Positions 19,230-50,311 of a stretch of DNA of 64,000 nucleotides are shown piece by piece (the stretch's first letter is position 1; every line of letters begins with the position of its first letter). Position numbers and translations under genes: made by a program. This stretch comes from Escherichia coli (lineage in GTDB: Bacteria > Pseudomonadota > Gammaproteobacteria > Enterobacterales > Enterobacteriaceae). Location of the stretch: NCBI RefSeq assembly GCF_022846255.1, contig NZ_AP025682.1. One strand, 5' to 3'. Under the pieces are notes generated by a model. The model saw only the letters and a list, made by a program, of their open reading frames with translations, did no database searches and was not told the origin of the DNA.

Positions 19230-19360
19230 AACCAAACGACTCGGGGTGCCCTTCTGCGTGAAGGCTGAGAAATACCCGTATCACCTGATCTGGATAATGC
19301 CAGCGTAGGGAAGTCACGGACCACCAGGTCATTGCTTCTTCACGTTATGGCAGGAGCAAA
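19230..19360 (+). promoter_or_regulatory. TPP (thiamine pyrophosphate) riboswitch in the thiM leader
   Basis: CGACTCGGGGTGCCCTTCTGCGTGAAGGCTGAGAAATACCCGTATCACCTGATCTGGATAATGCCAGCGTAGGGAAGTCACGG matches the thiM aptamer (thi-box CUGAGA ... ACCUGAUCUGGAUAAUGCCAGCGUAGGGAA); the AGGAG SD just before the ATG is sequestered by the expression platform. Confidence 0.9.
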
Positions 19361-23567: not shown

Positions 23568-24568
23568 ACCGCCTCCCGTTGTTGGCGATACTTCGCCAGC
23601 GCTGTGGCATAGCGGTTGAAATCAAGCTGATTTACTGCATCCAGTTCCGCCTTTAACGCAGGATCGATAGCGTTAACGCCATGCAACGCGCCACAAATTG
23701 CCGTCGCCATAGCACCGATGGTGTCTGTGTCGCCGCCAAGGTTAGCGCAAAGGACGGCGCAACGGTTCGGATCGGTTTGTGCCAGTTCAACCAGCGCAAT
23801 GGCACACGGCACGGACTCAATGGTGCTGGTGCCTGCGCCAACGACCTGATAAAGCTGTTCGCTGGCGGATTCGGTGCCGTCGGCATTGCGCACTATTTTC
23901 AGCGCAATCTCCAGACGTGCCGCCAGTGAGGCGCTGAAGGTAGTGATGCGTTTTTGTTGAGCATGTCGCGCAATTGAGGGCAGTGAATCAACAATCGCTG
24001 ACCAGCTTTCTCCGTCAATGGCACGAGAAATCGCCCATGCGATGACTACCGCCCCCGCAACCGCCAGATCGGATTTATGGGTCGGGCTGGAGGCCAGCGC
24101 CACATCATCAATAAAAGAGTCAATATCGCGCGCCGGAAGCAAACAACCTAATGGCGAGACGCGCATCGCTGCGCCGTTGGTCACGCCGTTATTTTCCAGT
24201 TCAGCAACGGGTTTACCGTCGCGAATGGCGTTAAGCGCAATCTTCGAGGTCGGACCTAGTACGTTTTTGTTAAAGGCGTCGAAACGCAGCGCCCAGTCGA
24301 GAATATTACGCCCAATCAGATCCGGATCGATCTTGCCTTCACGTTCCAGTAACGCATCCGCCAGACACAGCGCCATCGAGGTATCGTCGGTGAATTCGGC
24401 GCGGTTAAAATAACAGGCTGCGTTATTCTCCTTTGGCCCAGGCAGAAAACGGTCAATCCAGCCAAAGTGTGCTTTAACGCGGCTGCGTGGCCAAAGCTCG
24501 GAGGGCATCCCCATCGCATCCCCTAACGCCTGCCCATAAAGAGCACCGAGAATACGTTCTGTTTTCAT
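23564..24568 (-). CDS. yegU: ADP-ribosylglycohydrolase-family protein YegU
   Basis: 334 aa; GALYGQALGDAMGMP N-terminus and GGDTDTIGAMA C-terminal motif of the ADP-ribosylglycohydrolase fold. Confidence 0.9.
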   Translation of the reverse strand: MKTERILGALYGQALGDAMGMPSELWPRSRVKAHFGWIDRFLPGPKENNAACYFNRAEFTDDTSMALCLADALLEREGKIDPDLIGRNILDWALRFDAFNKNVLGPTSKIALNAIRDGKPVAELENNGVTNGAAMRVSPLGCLLPARDIDSFIDDVALASSPTHKSDLAVAGAVVIAWAISRAIDGESWSAIVDSLPSIARHAQQKRITTFSASLAARLEIALKIVRNADGTESASEQLYQVVGAGTSTIESVPCAIALVELAQTDPNRCAVLCANLGGDTDTIGAMATAICGALHGVNAIDPALKAELDAVNQLDFNRYATALAKYRQQREAV

Positions 24569-32749: not shown

Positions 32750-32848
32750 AACCGCGGGCCAGCGTGATGCTGGCCCGGTATTGTGCAAAACAGATCATTC
32801 ACCAATGGTCCCCCTTCGTTTACACTAGCCACAATTGAATATGGGTAA

Positions 32849-33628
32849 ATGACGATGAATTCATTCGAGCGAAGGAATAAGATCATCCAATTAGTGAATG
32901 AACAGGGAACCGTGCTTGTTCAGGATCTGGCGGGAGTATTTGCTGCCTCGGAAGCGACAATCCGTGCCGATTTGCGCTTTCTCGAACAAAAAGGCGTGGT
33001 TACGCGCTTTCATGGCGGTGCGGCGAAAATAATGTCCGGTAATAGTGAAACCGAGACCCAGGAAGTCGGGTTTAAAGAGCGATTTCAGCTCGCCAGCGCG
33101 CCAAAAAACAGAATAGCGCAGGCGGCAGTCAAAATGATCCACGAAGGGATGACCGTTATTCTCGACAGCGGAAGTACGACAATGCTTATCGCCGAAGGAT
33201 TAATGACCGCCAAAAATATCACGGTGATTACCAACAGTCTCCCGGCAGCATTTGCCCTTTCCGAAAATAAAGACATTACTCTGGTCGTCTGCGGTGGGAC
33301 CGTCCGCCATAAAACACGCTCGATGCATGGCTCCATTGCTGAGCGTTCATTGCAGGATATTAATGCCGATTTAATGTTTGTCGGTGCTGATGGTATTGAT
33401 GCGGTTAATGGTATTACGACCTTTAATGAAGGCTATTCGATTAGCGGGGCGATGGTCACAGCCGCAAATAAAGTGATTGCCGTTCTCGATTCATCGAAAT
33501 TTAATCGTCGCGGTTTTAATCAGGTACTGCCAATCGAAAAAATTGACATTATTATTACCGATGATGCTGTGTCTGAGGTGGATAAACTGGCATTGCAGAA
33601 GACACGGGTAAAGTTAATTACGGTGTAG
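32849..33628 (+). CDS. gatR: DeoR-family repressor of the gat operon, intact
   Basis: 259 aa uninterrupted ORF with N-terminal DeoR HTH (RRNKIIQLVNEQGTVLVQDLAGVFAASEATIRADLRFLE); start may be 32855. Confidence 0.9.
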   Translation: MTMNSFERRNKIIQLVNEQGTVLVQDLAGVFAASEATIRADLRFLEQKGVVTRFHGGAAKIMSGNSETETQEVGFKERFQLASAPKNRIAQAAVKMIHEGMTVILDSGSTTMLIAEGLMTAKNITVITNSLPAAFALSENKDITLVVCGGTVRHKTRSMHGSIAERSLQDINADLMFVGADGIDAVNGITTFNEGYSISGAMVTAANKVIAVLDSSKFNRRGFNQVLPIEKIDIIITDDAVSEVDKLALQKTRVKLITV

Positions 33629-33641
33629 TATTGTTCTGTAT

Positions 33642-33671
33642 GCCGGATAAGGTGTTTACACCGCATCCGGC
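33642..33671. repeat. REP element
   Basis: GCCGGATAAGGTGTTTACACCGCATCCGGC between convergent gatR and yegS. Confidence 0.5.
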
Positions 33672-33709
33672 ATTACGGATTCTCCCTGGTTCAACAGAGA
33701 ATAGTTTGA

Positions 33710-34609
33710 TTAACGCAATAATGGACAATCTGGTGGTAATCGACAACGCAACGCCGCCGGAAGTATTTCAATATGGAAGTTTTGCCCACTCAACGGTTCG
33801 CCATCAAGATTAAAAGTGATTTCGTGTGGGGCTTGTATATCAAACCACGACGAAGCGCCTTCGATAATATTCGGGTTATCTTCGTCAGATTTTAATGTTG
33901 ATACGAGAGCCGGAAGAATTTCATCGCCGGTAAAAATGCGCAGTTGCAGCAAGCCATCGTTAATTAACGCGTTCGGGCACAATTGCTGACCGCCACCGGC
34001 CTGACGCCCGTTACCAATACCAATGACCAGGGCGTCACCTTGCCAGTGAAAGTTTTCACCGCGGATTTCACAACGGTCCGGTTGCAGAGTATCCATGCGC
34101 ATTAAGCCATGAATGATGTAAGAGACGCCACCCAGCGCGGCTTTTAATTTTTCCGGCGTTTCTGTGGTAATACGCGTCCCAAATCCGCCTGTCGCCATAT
34201 TAATAAAACAGGTTTGTTTGTTGACCTGCGCCATATCTATCGCAATGGCGTTACCGGCAATTGCCAGTTTCAGCGCCTTATCCAGTGCCTCAGGAATCCC
34301 TACACTGGTGGCAAAATCATTGGCGGTTCCTAATGGCAAAATTCCCAGCGCGGGTATGTCATCCCCCTCACACTGAATCAACGCCGTAGAAACTTCATTA
34401 ATGGTGCCATCGCCACCACCGGCAATCACCGTTGCGACGCCCAACTTCCGGGCCTCCTCTACATATCGTGCGGCATCGCCTTTCTCCCAGGTGACCCGCA
34501 CATGGATCGTCATTCCTTCCTCACGCAACAGCATAATTGCTTCGCGCAAGGGTAAATTGTCAGTACTTTTGCCATTAAGAATCAGTAAGCTGGCGGGAAA
34601 TTCTGCCAT
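33710..34609 (-). CDS. yegS: lipid kinase YegS (DAG-kinase-like fold)
   Basis: 299 aa, [15 protein letters not shown]...; GGDGT motif. Confidence 0.93.
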
Positions 34610-35023
34610 GATCGTATGTGCCTTTATGATTGGTCTGTAGATAGTGTAGAGCAGAAAAGAAAAGGTAGAGTCAGAACAGGATGAAAGTCGGAGGATAAAA
34701 AGTCAGTTCAAGTATGGAAGATTCAGTGGTTACCACCAGGAGCTTGCAATGGGGACAGCGAATACTAACGGCAGCCACCGATAAATTTCAAAAAAGAGCA
34801 TATACCTAATATTCAACTAAACAGTGGCATCTTCAATATACTATTAAAAATATATTAACCCCCCCATGGGGTTACCCGGAAGGGCATCCGTGTATGTAAT
34901 TCCTACTTATGTAGGAAATGTTGTACAGAACATTTATTATAATCCTATTCAAATATAATAATCATGCCATTATTATATTTAAACACCAGAGCGTGTCGTT
35001 GGTATTTAATGGGGGAAGGTAAG

Positions 35024-35341
35024 ATGAAAAAGATAGCTGCTATATCATTAATTAGTGTTTTTCTTATGTCTGGTTGTGCTGTGCATAATGATGAGACAAG
35101 TATCGGTAAATTTGGCCTTGCATATAAAAGTAATATTCAGCGTAAACTCGATAACCAATACTACACCGAAGCCGAAGCTTCTTTAGCCAGGGGCAGAATT
35201 TCTGGTGCAGAAAATATAGTAAAAAATGATGCAGCTCATTTCTGTGTTACTCAGGGAAAAAAAATGCAGATAGTTGACCTGAAGACAGAAGGTGCAGGAT
35301 TACATGGCGTCGCTCGTCTGACATTCAAATGTGGAGAGTGA
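35024..35341 (+). CDS. yegR: small lipoprotein YegR
   Basis: 105 aa from MKKIAAISLISVFLMSGC (lipobox LMSGC); SD GGAAGG upstream; the 125-aa track ORF is an extension. Confidence 0.8.
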   Translation: MKKIAAISLISVFLMSGCAVHNDETSIGKFGLAYKSNIQRKLDNQYYTEAEASLARGRISGAENIVKNDAAHFCVTQGKKMQIVDLKTEGAGLHGVARLTFKCGE

Positions 35342-35498
35342 GAATATTTTTTGGTAAGCGTCAAACATGCGCGTTCTGGCTGTGCGTAACCGGAACCTGT
35401 GCGAGCACGATGCCAATAAGTGAAAGGCATCGTGCTATGAGGGGAGATTCTATCGATGTGGTCAATGGAAGACGGTTACCAGGATACGGCTTATGCAT

Positions 35499-35585
35499 AA
35501 AAAATAAGCCCGTGTAAGGGAGATTACACAGGCTAAGGAGGTGGTTCCTGGTACAGCTAGCATTTTATGGGTTATGTTTTTCAGC
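35499..35585 (-). ncRNA. cyaR: CyaR (RyeE) Hfq-dependent sRNA
   Basis: Minus strand reads GCTGAAAAACATAACCCATAAAATGCTAGCTGTACCAGGAACCACCTCCTTAGCCTGTGTAATCTCCCTTACACGGGCTTATTTTTT, matching CyaR including the terminator hairpin and U-tract. Confidence 0.85.
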
Positions 35586-35669
35586 GAAACGGATGATAAC
35601 CTTAATAAATGCAGCTGTATGTGATCGGTTTCTAAGAATTTTCCATCCGGGAAAAATAATCGAAATTAA

Positions 35670-37031
35670 TCACTTACCGTGGGGGTTACGCGTGGTTTCC
35701 CCGGAGAAATTACGCATCAGCAGCGCGTAATTTAGCTCAAGATCCTGCGGCACCGGGATCCACACAGTATAACCATCGCCCGGTGCGACCGGCATTGCTT
35801 CGCCTTTGGCGTTTTCCATATGCTCAAGGGTAAAGTTAATGTTCCCTTGCGGCGTCATCAGCTCAAGGCTGTCGCCAACGGAGAATTTATTTTTCACCGC
35901 TACCGCCGCGAGGTCGCCCTTGCGCTCACCGGTAAACTCACCAACAAACTGCTGGCGGTCAGAAACTGAATAACCGTATTCGTAGTTCTGATAATCGTCG
36001 TGAGTATGACGACGCAGGAAACCTTCGGTATAGCCACGATGCGCCAGACCTTCCAGAGTTTCCAGCAGGCTGGTATCGAACGGTTTGCCCGCAGCGGCAT
36101 CATCGATAGCTTTACGGTAAACCTGCGCGGTGCGTGCGCAATAGTAGAAAGATTTGGTACGACCTTCGATTTTCAGCGAATGCACGCCCATTTTGGTCAG
36201 GCGTTCTACATGGGCGATGGCGCGCAGATCTTTCGAGTTCATGATGTAAGTGCCGTGCTCATCTTCAAACGCGGTCATATACTCGCCCGGACGCTGGGCT
36301 TCTTCGATCATAAACACTTTGTCGGTTGGCGCGCCGATACCCAGCGTCGGCTCAACATTTTGCACCGGAATCGGCTCGTACTTGTGTACGATGTTGCCAA
36401 CGTCATCTTCTTTCCCTTCCTGGACGTTGTACTCCCAGCGGCAGGCGTTGGTGCAGGTACCCTGGTTCGGGTCGCGCTTGTTGATATAGCCAGAGAGCAG
36501 GCAGCGACCGGAGTAGGCCATGCACAGCGCGCCGTGAACGAAGATCTCGATCTCCATATCCGGCACCTGATTGCGGATCTCTTCAATCTCTTCCAGCGAC
36601 AGCTCGCGAGAGAGGATCACGCGGGTCAGTCCCATTTGCTGCCAGAATTTCACCGTCGCCCAGTTCACGGCGTTAGCCTGTACCGAGAGATGGATCGGCA
36701 TTTCAGGGAAGTGCTCGCGCACCAGCATAATCAGCCCCGGATCGGACATAATCAGCGCATCCGGCCCCATTTCCACCACCGGTTTCAGGTCACGGATAAA
36801 GGTTTTCAGCTTGGCGTTGTGCGGTGCAATGTTGACCACAACATAAAACTTTTTCCCCAGCGCGTGGGCTTCATTGATGCCGAGCTGAAGATTTTCGTGG
36901 TTGAATTCGTTGTTGCGCACACGCAGGGAGTAACGCGGCTGGCCCGCATAAACAGCATCTGCGCCATAAGCGAAAGCGTAACGCATATTTTTCAGCGTTC
37001 CCGCCGGGGAAAGGAGTTCCGGTTTAAACAT
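35670..37031 (-). CDS. yegQ: U32-family protein YegQ/TrhP (tRNA U34 hydroxylation)
   Basis: 453 aa, MFKPELLSPAGTLKNMRYAFAYGADAVYAG (U32 family). Confidence 0.93.
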   Translation of the reverse strand: MFKPELLSPAGTLKNMRYAFAYGADAVYAGQPRYSLRVRNNEFNHENLQLGINEAHALGKKFYVVVNIAPHNAKLKTFIRDLKPVVEMGPDALIMSDPGLIMLVREHFPEMPIHLSVQANAVNWATVKFWQQMGLTRVILSRELSLEEIEEIRNQVPDMEIEIFVHGALCMAYSGRCLLSGYINKRDPNQGTCTNACRWEYNVQEGKEDDVGNIVHKYEPIPVQNVEPTLGIGAPTDKVFMIEEAQRPGEYMTAFEDEHGTYIMNSKDLRAIAHVERLTKMGVHSLKIEGRTKSFYYCARTAQVYRKAIDDAAAGKPFDTSLLETLEGLAHRGYTEGFLRRHTHDDYQNYEYGYSVSDRQQFVGEFTGERKGDLAAVAVKNKFSVGDSLELMTPQGNINFTLEHMENAKGEAMPVAPGDGYTVWIPVPQDLELNYALLMRNFSGETTRNPHGK

Positions 37032-37133: not shown

Positions 37134-37430
37134 TTAGCTCCAGTGTAAATGTCTGGAGGCGTCCTGGTTTTGGTTAAGGATACGAATGACGATAATTTCC
37201 TCTGGTGATTGCAGGAAATAAATTACGTGGCGTTCAAAAGGAAGAACAAAAATACCTTCGCCTAATTCAGGTCTGGGTGTACCTATATTATTGTTACTCA
37301 GAATCTGGAGAACGTCTGAAAGATGTTCCACATATCTGTCGGCTTGTGGTTCGCCGAAATGGTGATAGCTGTAATACCAGATGCCTTCTAAATCCTCATT
37401 GGCTTTTGGCATGAGTTTTATAGTACGCAC
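37134..37430 (-). CDS. ParE/RelE-superfamily toxin (type II TA)
   Basis: 98 aa; pattern A..DL..I..Y ... HVIYF ... IIVIRIL typical of ParE toxins; start 1 nt after the stop of the upstream RHH antitoxin gene. Confidence 0.75.
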   Translation of the reverse strand: MRTIKLMPKANEDLEGIWYYSYHHFGEPQADRYVEHLSDVLQILSNNNIGTPRPELGEGIFVLPFERHVIYFLQSPEEIIVIRILNQNQDASRHLHWS

Positions 37431-37431
37431 A

Positions 37432-37683
37432 TTATTTCCTTATCCCTGCTTTCACCTTCCGTAAAAACGCGTCCTTTTCCCACGGCTGAGCTTCACCACT
37501 ACTCAACCCTTCAGCGAGCATGTCACGTAACGCTTGCAGGCGAGACTCTGCTTGCTTTTCTCGAAGTAAGCGCAGCGACTCACGGATCACTTCGCTTTGG
37601 GTGCGATAGTCGCCGGATTCAATTAAGGACTCGATAAATTCACGCAACTCATCGCCGAGATCAACCGTCATCGTTCTGGCCAT
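37432..37683 (-). CDS. ParD-like (RHH/CopG, COG3609-type) antitoxin
   Basis: About 83 aa from MARTMTVDLGDELREFIESLIESGDYRTQSEVIRESLRLLREKQ (ribbon-helix-helix fold pattern); immediately upstream of the ParE-like gene. Confidence 0.75.
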   Translation of the reverse strand: MARTMTVDLGDELREFIESLIESGDYRTQSEVIRESLRLLREKQAESRLQALRDMLAEGLSSGEAQPWEKDAFLRKVKAGIRK

Positions 37684-37696
37684 TTTACGCCCGCCT

Positions 37697-37713
37697 GTAA
37701 GTAAAAATCTTAC
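37697..37713. promoter_or_regulatory. candidate autoregulatory operator palindrome of the TA promoter (GTAAG-N7-CTTAC)
   Basis: Inverted repeat 14 bp upstream of the antitoxin ATG; the operator assignment is inference. Confidence 0.3.
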
Positions 37714-37936
37714 ATCAGTGTATTTCATAAACCGGATAGCGTCACGAAAGTATTAGAAGATATTTTGGCATATGAACATGTTCAGGAAGATAAGTATGGG
37801 ATGGTAAACAAAGAAAGCACAACGAGTGCTTGTCAGTGCCCACTATTTTAATGGCGGAGGTTAATCTTAATTATCAATAACTAAGAGTTGTTTTGATATA
37901 AAGCCGGACGCCAACAACCCACGCCCGGCATCGTAA

Positions 37937-49663: not shown

Positions 49664-49805
49664 CGGAAAAGCCCCTCCCGAGGAAGGGGCCTTAAATAAG
49701 GAAAGGGTCATGATGAAGTGGATCATCATCGTGGTGCTCTTAGTGATTAGCTACCCAGCATACTAAGACTACCAGGGCGGGGGAAACCCCGCTCTACCCT
49801 CACTC
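49664..49805 (-). ncRNA. Sib-family antisense sRNA (antitoxin RNA); boundaries approximate
   Basis: Antisense to the ibs ORF; minus-strand terminator hairpin CCCCTTCC-TC-GGGAGGGG followed by CTTTTCC at about 49664-49690. The 5' end is estimated from the usual Sib length of about 140 nt. Confidence 0.45.
49710..49766 (+). CDS. Ibs-family type I toxin, 18 aa (MMKWIIIVVLLVISYPAY)
   Basis: Short hydrophobic ORF with SD AAGGAAAGGG; Ibs family signature MMK...LLVIS..AY. A or B assignment not attempted. Confidence 0.7.
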   Translation: MMKWIIIVVLLVISYPAY

Positions 49806-49991
49806 CTGAAAGTATGCCTTCACGGTCCAATTGTCAATCCGCAGACTTTGCAGTCTGCGATCCTGCCAGCAAATATTCTTTGCGAGTCGTTACGCAATAA
49901 TCACACTTGAAACTATTTTATCCGCAAGTCAGCGATAGACTGCATACAGGGCGAAAGGAGGTAAGCCGAAGATTTCAGCGGGACGCTGAAA

Positions 49992-50133
49992 CGGGAAAGC
50001 CCCTCCCGAGGAAGGGGCCTTAAATAAGGAAAGGGTCATGATGAAGCTACTCATCATCGTGGTGCTCTTAGTCATTAGCTGGCCAGCTTACTAAGACTAC
50101 CAGGGCGGGGGAAACCCCGCTCTACCCTCACTC
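49992..50133 (-). ncRNA. Sib-family antisense sRNA, second copy; boundaries approximate
   Basis: Same hairpin and terminator, offset by about 328 bp from copy 1. Confidence 0.45.
50038..50094 (+). CDS. Ibs-family type I toxin, 18 aa (MMKLLIIVVLLVISWPAY)
   Basis: Second copy within repeat unit 2; same SD and context. Confidence 0.7.
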   Translation: MMKLLIIVVLLVISWPAY

Positions 50134-50311
50134 CTGAAATTATGTCACTCCGCCCTTAGTGTCAATCGACGGCTCTCCGTTCTTGCGAGGCGAATAGCAA
50201 AATTTTCTGCGCCGCCGGGCCTAATTCTGAAAGTTTCTTCGTTTGCTCTTATTTCATTATTGCAATCGGTATGATACCGGACCTCAATAATTCTCTAAGA
50301 AAGGATTTCTT

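Follow-up and report, generated by a model that had tools for sequence, protein, structure and literature searches.

The DNA between yegR and cyaR in the 64,000-nt stretch of Escherichia coli sequence analyzed here (the window) is, we conclude with high confidence, best explained as an unoccupied phage P2 attachment site (attB) in the terminator of the CyaR small RNA gene, accompanied by an older P2/186-like prophage relic that we infer to reach from yegS to the att core. The variation of this interval among strains has a specific cause, namely that the CyaR terminator is the P2 attB core. We found nothing substantial that argues against the statement that the window carries an unoccupied P2 site. 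The presence of a P2 site at cyaR and the strain variation there are already known and ordinary, and the older relic is the only part of the account that might be new.

The gene order in the window is gatD, gatR, yegS, yegR, cyaR, yegQ (trhP), parDE, yegP, and baeR, inverted relative to K-12. The lipid kinase gene yegS was located as an ORF at 33710-34609 on the minus strand, and yegR as an ORF of 105 codons at 35024-35341 on the plus strand (stop codon at 35339-35341); the start of yegR is an internal ATG of the listed ORF 34964-35341 and agrees with the 318-nt yegR of K-12. The cyaR (ryeE) gene, mapped from the K-12 annotation to 35499-35585 on the minus strand, is identical to its K-12 counterpart at 87 of 87 positions, and the Rfam CyaR_RyeE model RF00112 matches 35587-35502 of the same strand with 100.7 bits (gathering score 47, E = 6e-19) over the full model, positions 1-85 of 85. 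A terminator scan placed the intrinsic terminator of cyaR, also on the minus strand, at a stem spanning 35534-35507 followed by a T-tail. The minus-strand promoter region (35586-35669) ends at the yegQ stop codon and is identical to K-12 at 84 of 84 positions. With yegQ upstream (35670-37031, minus strand; an ORF, and so annotated in matching genomes), an intrinsic terminator, and the promoter region of the characterized K-12 gene, the locus belongs to CyaR/RyeE. The preliminary description had reported a CyaR gene about 160 bp from the yegR stop, and both statements were borne out by the Rfam score, the complete identity to K-12, and a measured gap of 157 nt (K-12 annotation) or 160 nt (Rfam end) between the yegR stop codon and the 3' end of CyaR. 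The whole yegR-yegQ spacer is 328 bp and contains an intact cyaR. Elsewhere in the window, gatR is intact (32849-33628) and is split by IS3E in K-12; matches above the Rfam gathering scores include two copies of the Sib antitoxin RNA at 49695-49837 and 50023-50165 on the minus strand (137 and 141 bits) and, at 19232-19328 on the plus strand, the TPP riboswitch that precedes thiM.

The last 27 nt of cyaR, comprising the descending half of the terminator stem and the U-tail, coincide with the 27-bp P2 att core. On the plus strand, positions 35499-35525 (AAAAAATAAGCCCGTGTAAGGGAGATT) match AF063097 24356-24382, a segment annotated as 'attP' and 'Int, attP core', at 27 of 27 positions. This attB core in the CyaR terminator is the site named locI in the P2 literature. 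Its identity as P2 attB is also borne out by natural prophages, whose junctions with the host fall exactly at these 27 bp, int being at one end and ogr at the opposite end: in O157:H7 Z1835, a complete P2-like prophage starts exactly after the core and has its int 80 nt away, toward yegR, and in strain elppa10, gene D and ogrK abut cyaR. Separately, the Z1835 prophage at cyaR (L003, 26976-29459) carries a retron-like gene of the reverse-transcriptase family in the cargo interval between gpA and the portal gene. A published table gives cyaR among the P2 insertion sites, listing Wphi2 for W, ogr-D' for K-12, P2*B for B, and an empty site for Crooks (PMC3032704), and another paper names ryeE as an already known target of phages (PMC3603311).

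From these sequences, a P2-type integrase would recombine the 27-bp core of attP with the identical core at the cyaR 3' end. Since phage and host share one core sequence, integration restores the CyaR 3' end, so that lysogens keep a working cyaR, and this accounts for the unchanged cyaR of K-12. In the window strain, nothing is integrated at the core. The terminator stem itself (35507-35534) has a 3' half that is exactly the P2 core and for this reason contains one G-U pair in the window and in K-12. In ST131-type genomes, an A replaces a G in the stem, the core matches at 26 of 27 positions, and the stem is perfect; E. albertii and Citrobacter have another stem variant, which agrees with the cores of their own prophages. 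Past phage crossovers may set the CyaR terminator allele.

The evidence for an older relic lies in an 808-nt block (34691-35498) that holds yegR in the window and is absent from the divergent Escherichia genome CP089930.1 (labelled E. coli E69; L071). That genome is 89% identical to the window over gatR-yegS and has the order yegS, core, and cyaR. When the two were compared by blastn, homology covered 32800-34690 and resumed at 35499, the right edge of the block being exactly the first base of the core. The positions before the block (34610-34690) are common to the yegR-less E69 and, on alignment with E69 and E. albertii, represent the ancestral upstream region of yegS and the true bacterial arm. 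A CyaR motif scan covering one genome per species yielded 80 Enterobacterales loci, in which genes were placed by tblastn. In 30 of the 44 outgroup loci that hold both genes, the yegS start lies 78-227 nt past the CyaR 3' end, with no yegR between them. A clean, unoccupied junction is thereby found in one Escherichia example, CP089930.1 (yegS-core-cyaR), and in these 30 outgroup loci. The strain counts given here come from junction-specific queries of 5,426 complete E. coli genomes, among which no yegR-less junction of the E69 type was found. The single high-coverage match, FDAARGOS_1077, was rejected as such a junction and instead has an internal yegR deletion; this E. coli genome (L138) lacks most of the gene (window 35081-35374) and keeps both att-like ends.

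The similarities of the block to phage were found in two steps. A blastn comparison of the spacer with phages using 11-base words missed the P2 and 186 similarities, both of which were shown by local Smith-Waterman alignment. Because the similarities had surfaced only by the latter method, an unbiased tile scan with controls was run as a guard against cherry-picking: positions 34610-35560 were tiled against all of phage 186 and against P2 23655-33593 on both strands, with control tiles drawn from yegS and yegQ. Only four matches exceeded the control maximum of 17: the real core with a score of 29, the right end of 186 with 24, and, with 21 each, the P arm and a core plus P' arm. They all lie on one strand, in the order of an integrated P2-family genome.

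Starting from the yegS side, the first of these elements, 6 nt into the block, is a degenerate version of the 27-bp P2 att core (34697-34723, plus strand; the putative fossil attL core). It matches at 19 of 27 positions, and in the 64-kb window no other position on either strand, apart from the real core, has at least 19/27 core matches. Adjoining it is a decayed P' arm (34724-34752, plus strand), the int-proximal arm of a P2-type attP, in register with P2 just after the core and with the attL of E. albertii. The segment 34696-34749 scored 21 against P2 24355-24409 in the tile scan (control-tile maximum 17); taken alone, the P' arm similarity is modest, with 11 of 2000 shuffles reaching its score when register is ignored. 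The AT-rich stretch that follows, upstream of yegR (34753-35023), gave no tile-scan match above the control level, and neither tblastx nor the tile scan detected int or another phage coding remnant within it. The GC content is 0.37 over 34691-35024 and 0.40 over the whole block versus 0.51 for the window. A terminator-like hairpin (TAACCCCATGGGGGGGTTA) with a T-run occurs in this AT-rich DNA at 34856-34874 on the minus strand and serves no obvious gene.

On the cyaR side of yegR, positions 35346-35403 (plus strand) align locally with phage 186 30517-30574 on the same strand, a stretch located 50-108 nt from the 186 cohesive end, and thus resemble a fossil of the cos-proximal right end. The alignment scored 24-26, compared with 9.1 +/- 1.3 (maximum 16) for shuffled sequences and a maximum of 17 for the control tiles. 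It is followed at 35404-35436 by a hairpin with an 11-bp stem (AGCACGATGCC / GGCATCGTGCT) that has no T-run and was not called as a terminator; the hairpin may derive from the region of cos or of the ogr terminator, although it aligns only tentatively with P2/186 cos sequence. A decayed P arm of a P2-type attP (35438-35482, plus strand) completes the series. Its local score against P2 24278-24322 was 21, compared with 8.0 +/- 1.3 (maximum 14) for shuffles, none of 2000 of which reached 21, and 15 nt of it (35453-35467) match exactly the annotated P2 Int arm-binding site ('Int, P arm', 24293-24320). The motif GGGGAGATT at 35441-35449 was considered as a relic of the core 3' end and not counted as evidence, as it gives only 14/27 in register and fits the 3' half of the ogr terminator about equally well.

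The block is thus bounded by direct repeats of the att core (34697-34723, 19/27, and 35499-35525, 27/27), with a P' arm after the left core and a P arm before the right core, both scoring above the control maximum. Neither tblastx nor the tile scan picked up any trace of phage coding sequence (from int, A, D, ogr, or others) in the block, the 186 homology being confined to non-coding cos-proximal sequence. The arms are P2-like versus a 186-like cos-proximal piece, so a mosaic donor has to be assumed. We propose that an older P2/186-like prophage integrated at the same core and left 34691-35498, including yegR, behind. The relic would have lost nearly everything else by two large deletions, from int through A and from cos through ogr, and would then have become fixed in E. 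coli; the 'empty' attB would formally be the attR of this fossil prophage. On balance we consider it fairly likely that the site preferred by P2 in E. coli originated as attR of an ancient, species-fixed P2/186-like prophage that has decayed to ∼0.8 kb, with yegR and the ST131-type fragment of a partner gene as its surviving cos-proximal cargo. The Int arm half-site kept beside the core could add to the site preference of P2.

The proposed cargo gene encodes a predicted lipoprotein of 105 aa and is an orphan. YegR gave no significant family match in Pfam, NCBIfam, or PADLOC, the precomputed PF27694 label 'YegR' being the only one. Homologues with 44-82% identity occur in other bacteria as isolated genes at unrelated loci, one of which is IS-rich, and yegR is absent from E69 and from the outgroup cyaR loci. 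In another enterobacterium (L140), the yegR homologue is followed by a gene for a 110-aa lipoprotein (3322-3654). The junction 35346/35347 in the window is the point at which 947 of the 5,426 genomes, ST131 among them, carry an extra 170 bp after the yegR stop (blastn versus L002, 1947-2117), and the translation of this extra DNA is a fragment resembling the second lipoprotein gene of L140. By this comparison, the window and K-12 have lost the partner-gene fragment, slightly more of the cassette being gone.

In the window, yegR is positioned directly upstream of the cos-proximal fossil and is oriented like orf97 of phage 186. It would thereby occupy the place, shortly before cos, at which accessory genes are carried by P2-like phages; a hotspot for such cargo is documented in the cos-proximal gpA-gpQ interval of these phages (PMC9122126). 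YegR could be a domesticated phage-exclusion function. A phage-database search found no yegR in genuine phage genomes and returned only two records, both with host flank. These records, ON470606.1 and 'Phage TP' AY639599.1, were rejected as phages carrying yegR or the bacterial arm on the grounds that they include flanking host genes (gatR-yegS-yegR, or yegR-ogr-cyaR-yegQ), and a strong match of YegR to PHROG phrog_21109 was set aside as probably reflecting host flank likewise. No link between yegR and a prophage was found in the literature searched, a set that lay outside the primary P2 att-site papers.

The alternative that survives best accepts the fossil att ends and holds that yegR came between them later by an unrelated insertion, never having been phage cargo. 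DNA homology between the window and L140 is confined to the coding sequence (35024-35344), and the yegR homologues stand isolated at several unrelated loci, including the IS-rich one, as such an insertion would suggest. Against it, yegR and the ST131-type partner fragment lie immediately upstream of the cos-proximal fossil in the same orientation, the position and direction of yegR are those of orf97/tum in phage 186 and of the P2-like cargo hotspot, and a non-exhaustive search saw no IS ends or target duplications around yegR. We therefore regard a late arrival of yegR as unlikely.

Less probable still, and in our judgment quite doubtful, is that the whole block is ordinary ancestral Escherichia DNA, that its likeness to P2 and 186 is due to chance or to host flank taken up by phages, and that the yegR-less genome lost the block. 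The block does lack any phage gene remnant, every similarity is short (25-58 nt), and it is established that phages can capture host flanks by imprecise excision. However, three separate similarities exceed the control maximum on one strand, in prophage order and at the exact edges of the indel, and the P arm match takes in a functional Int arm-binding site that is annotated in P2. The same P arm is shared by P2-like prophages at cyaR in Citrobacter (L039, L040, and L044), and the cos-proximal region, not being adjacent to att in the phage, could not be captured by aberrant excision. In addition, yegS stands directly beside cyaR in outgroup genera, and the GC content of the block is low.

The comparison with K-12 concerns the later history of the same core. 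In MG1655, the yegR-cyaR interval is 788 nt (2167201-2167988), where the annotation lists 'cryptic prophage PR-X' (2167183-2167811) together with ogrK and the pseudogene yegZ; Barreiro and Haggard-Ljungquist reportedly described the P2 attachment sites and the K-12 remnant in 1992. By blastn, K-12 differs from the window by a single insertion of 630 nt, and the alignments on its two sides share 26 nt, as is characteristic of a duplicated att core. The insert is 96.7% identical to P2 over 641 aligned nt, extending from inside gene D through ogr to attP. At the K-12 attL junction, the first 19 nt of the core (AAAAAAATAAGCCCGTGTA) are fused straight to gene D sequence on the yegR side, and K-12 thus keeps the right end of P2 after a deletion that began inside attL. 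A later P2 integration in K-12 has accordingly decayed to 630 nt (ogrK and the end of gene D) by deletion from inside the attL core into gene D. Alignment of the window with K-12 revealed no ogrK or yegZ sequence between cyaR and yegR, which places the window outside PR-X. The preliminary description had placed a P2-like remnant in K-12 and noted its absence here. K-12 does carry ogrK and yegZ, within the 630 nt and at exactly this point, neither was found in the window, and the spacings are far from equal (157-160 nt versus 788 nt). The wider wording of that claim, that no P2-like remnant is present, holds for ogrK and yegZ and fails for the spacer itself, the 157 nt of which are, by the local alignments and the tile scan, largely older decayed P2/186-like sequence.

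Among the 5,426 genomes, 4,147 (76%) have the uninterrupted att junction of the window, a state seen in many sources and lineages. A K-12-type yegZ/attL remnant junction occurs in 358 genomes, which include, among the matches listed, the K-12-type laboratory strains O16:H48, ER1709, and K1508; a P2-type integrase junction occurs in 747, and about 170 show another state. The remnant-free state is the commoner one, and K-12 represents a minority state. It is very improbable that a K-12-like ancestor lost ogrK-yegZ by deletion or excision and that the short spacer is derived: direct repeats of most of the core do flank the K-12 remnant (the 26-nt overlap), and homologous recombination could in principle remove it, but the K-12-type junction is limited to those 358 genomes, with K-12-type strains among the matches listed, the uninterrupted junction extends over 4,147 genomes of many lineages (O157, ST131, and O145 included), and precise Int-mediated excision is not expected because the remnant attL core stops after 19 nt, fused to gene D. 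Beyond the att junction, the parE/parD toxin-antitoxin cassette of the window (37134-37728, minus strand; ORFs, with ParD/RelE-ParE in the GF131 annotation) lies in the yegQ-yegP interval. parDE is present between these genes in 1,843 of the 5,426 genomes and missing from K-12, which has a 146-nt spacer there. The att junction, the extra 170 bp, and parDE thus vary independently across these genomes, in agreement with the earlier description of yegS-yegP as a hotspot of strain variation.

An empty site at cyaR is textbook prophage-driven variation at an sRNA gene and by itself adds little. As a point of annotation, P2 should be able to lysogenise the window strain at the site that the phage prefers, and K-12 makes an atypical reference. 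The older relic, if true, would provide an origin for yegR, an orphan gene that occurs E. coli-wide, and would reveal a layered reuse of one att site by the fossil, PR-X in K-12, cdtABC in E. albertii, and the live prophages of ∼14% of genomes. It would also mean that the sequence studied as the bacterial arm at locI has a phage origin and retains part of an Int arm-binding site. We regard the relic as probable and of modest interest.

When compared with known systems, the window agrees with P2 locI and with the K-12 ogr-D' (PR-X) locus in having a core identical to P2 attP within the CyaR terminator, the site itself showing no difference. The prophage, remnant, and empty states found among strains agree with the published table for W, K-12, B, and Crooks (PMC3032704), in which the window simply corresponds to the unoccupied state. 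The arrangement is also like the integration of other phages at the 3' ends of tRNA, tmRNA, and sRNA genes, as exemplified by phage 186 at ileY, in that the phage copy of the RNA 3' end keeps the gene intact; the attP of phage 186 holds a truncated tRNA-Ile. Whereas the 186 target is a tRNA gene, the P2 target here encodes an Hfq-binding regulatory sRNA. P2-like prophages are found at cyaR in Citrobacter genomes as well. A stretch beside cyaR in L058 (labelled E. coli SCPM-O-B-8794; 3480-3702) consists of P-arm-like sequence followed by inverted sequence of the 186 right-end type, which suggests, from a short contig piece, another rearranged P2-family remnant at this gene.

With respect to cargo, P2-like phages are described as carrying old and tin (P2), tum and orf97 (186), or defence systems in the cos-proximal position (Rousset et al. 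2022). yegR likewise directly precedes the cos-proximal fossil and points in the same direction as orf97. Unlike the defence cargo of that hotspot, YegR matches no known defence family in PADLOC, and no extant carrier phage was found. The closest parallel is in E. albertii NBRC 107761 (L012, 4906-8413), where the cdtABC toxin operon lies between cyaR and yegS. This operon is bounded by an attL beside yegS (core 23/27 plus P' arm) and an attR in cyaR (P arm plus core 25/27). The E. albertii island and the yegR block share the same att core and the same flanks (yegQ-cyaR and yegS), and in both the cargo is kept and the phage genes are gone. E. albertii has well-preserved att ends and a known toxin operon as cargo, whereas in E. 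coli the left core matches at 19 of 27 positions, both arms show heavy decay, and the surviving gene, yegR, is without a known function. To judge from these sequences, cdtABC of E. albertii would be a younger stage of the same decay, a P2-like prophage that has been reduced to its cargo.
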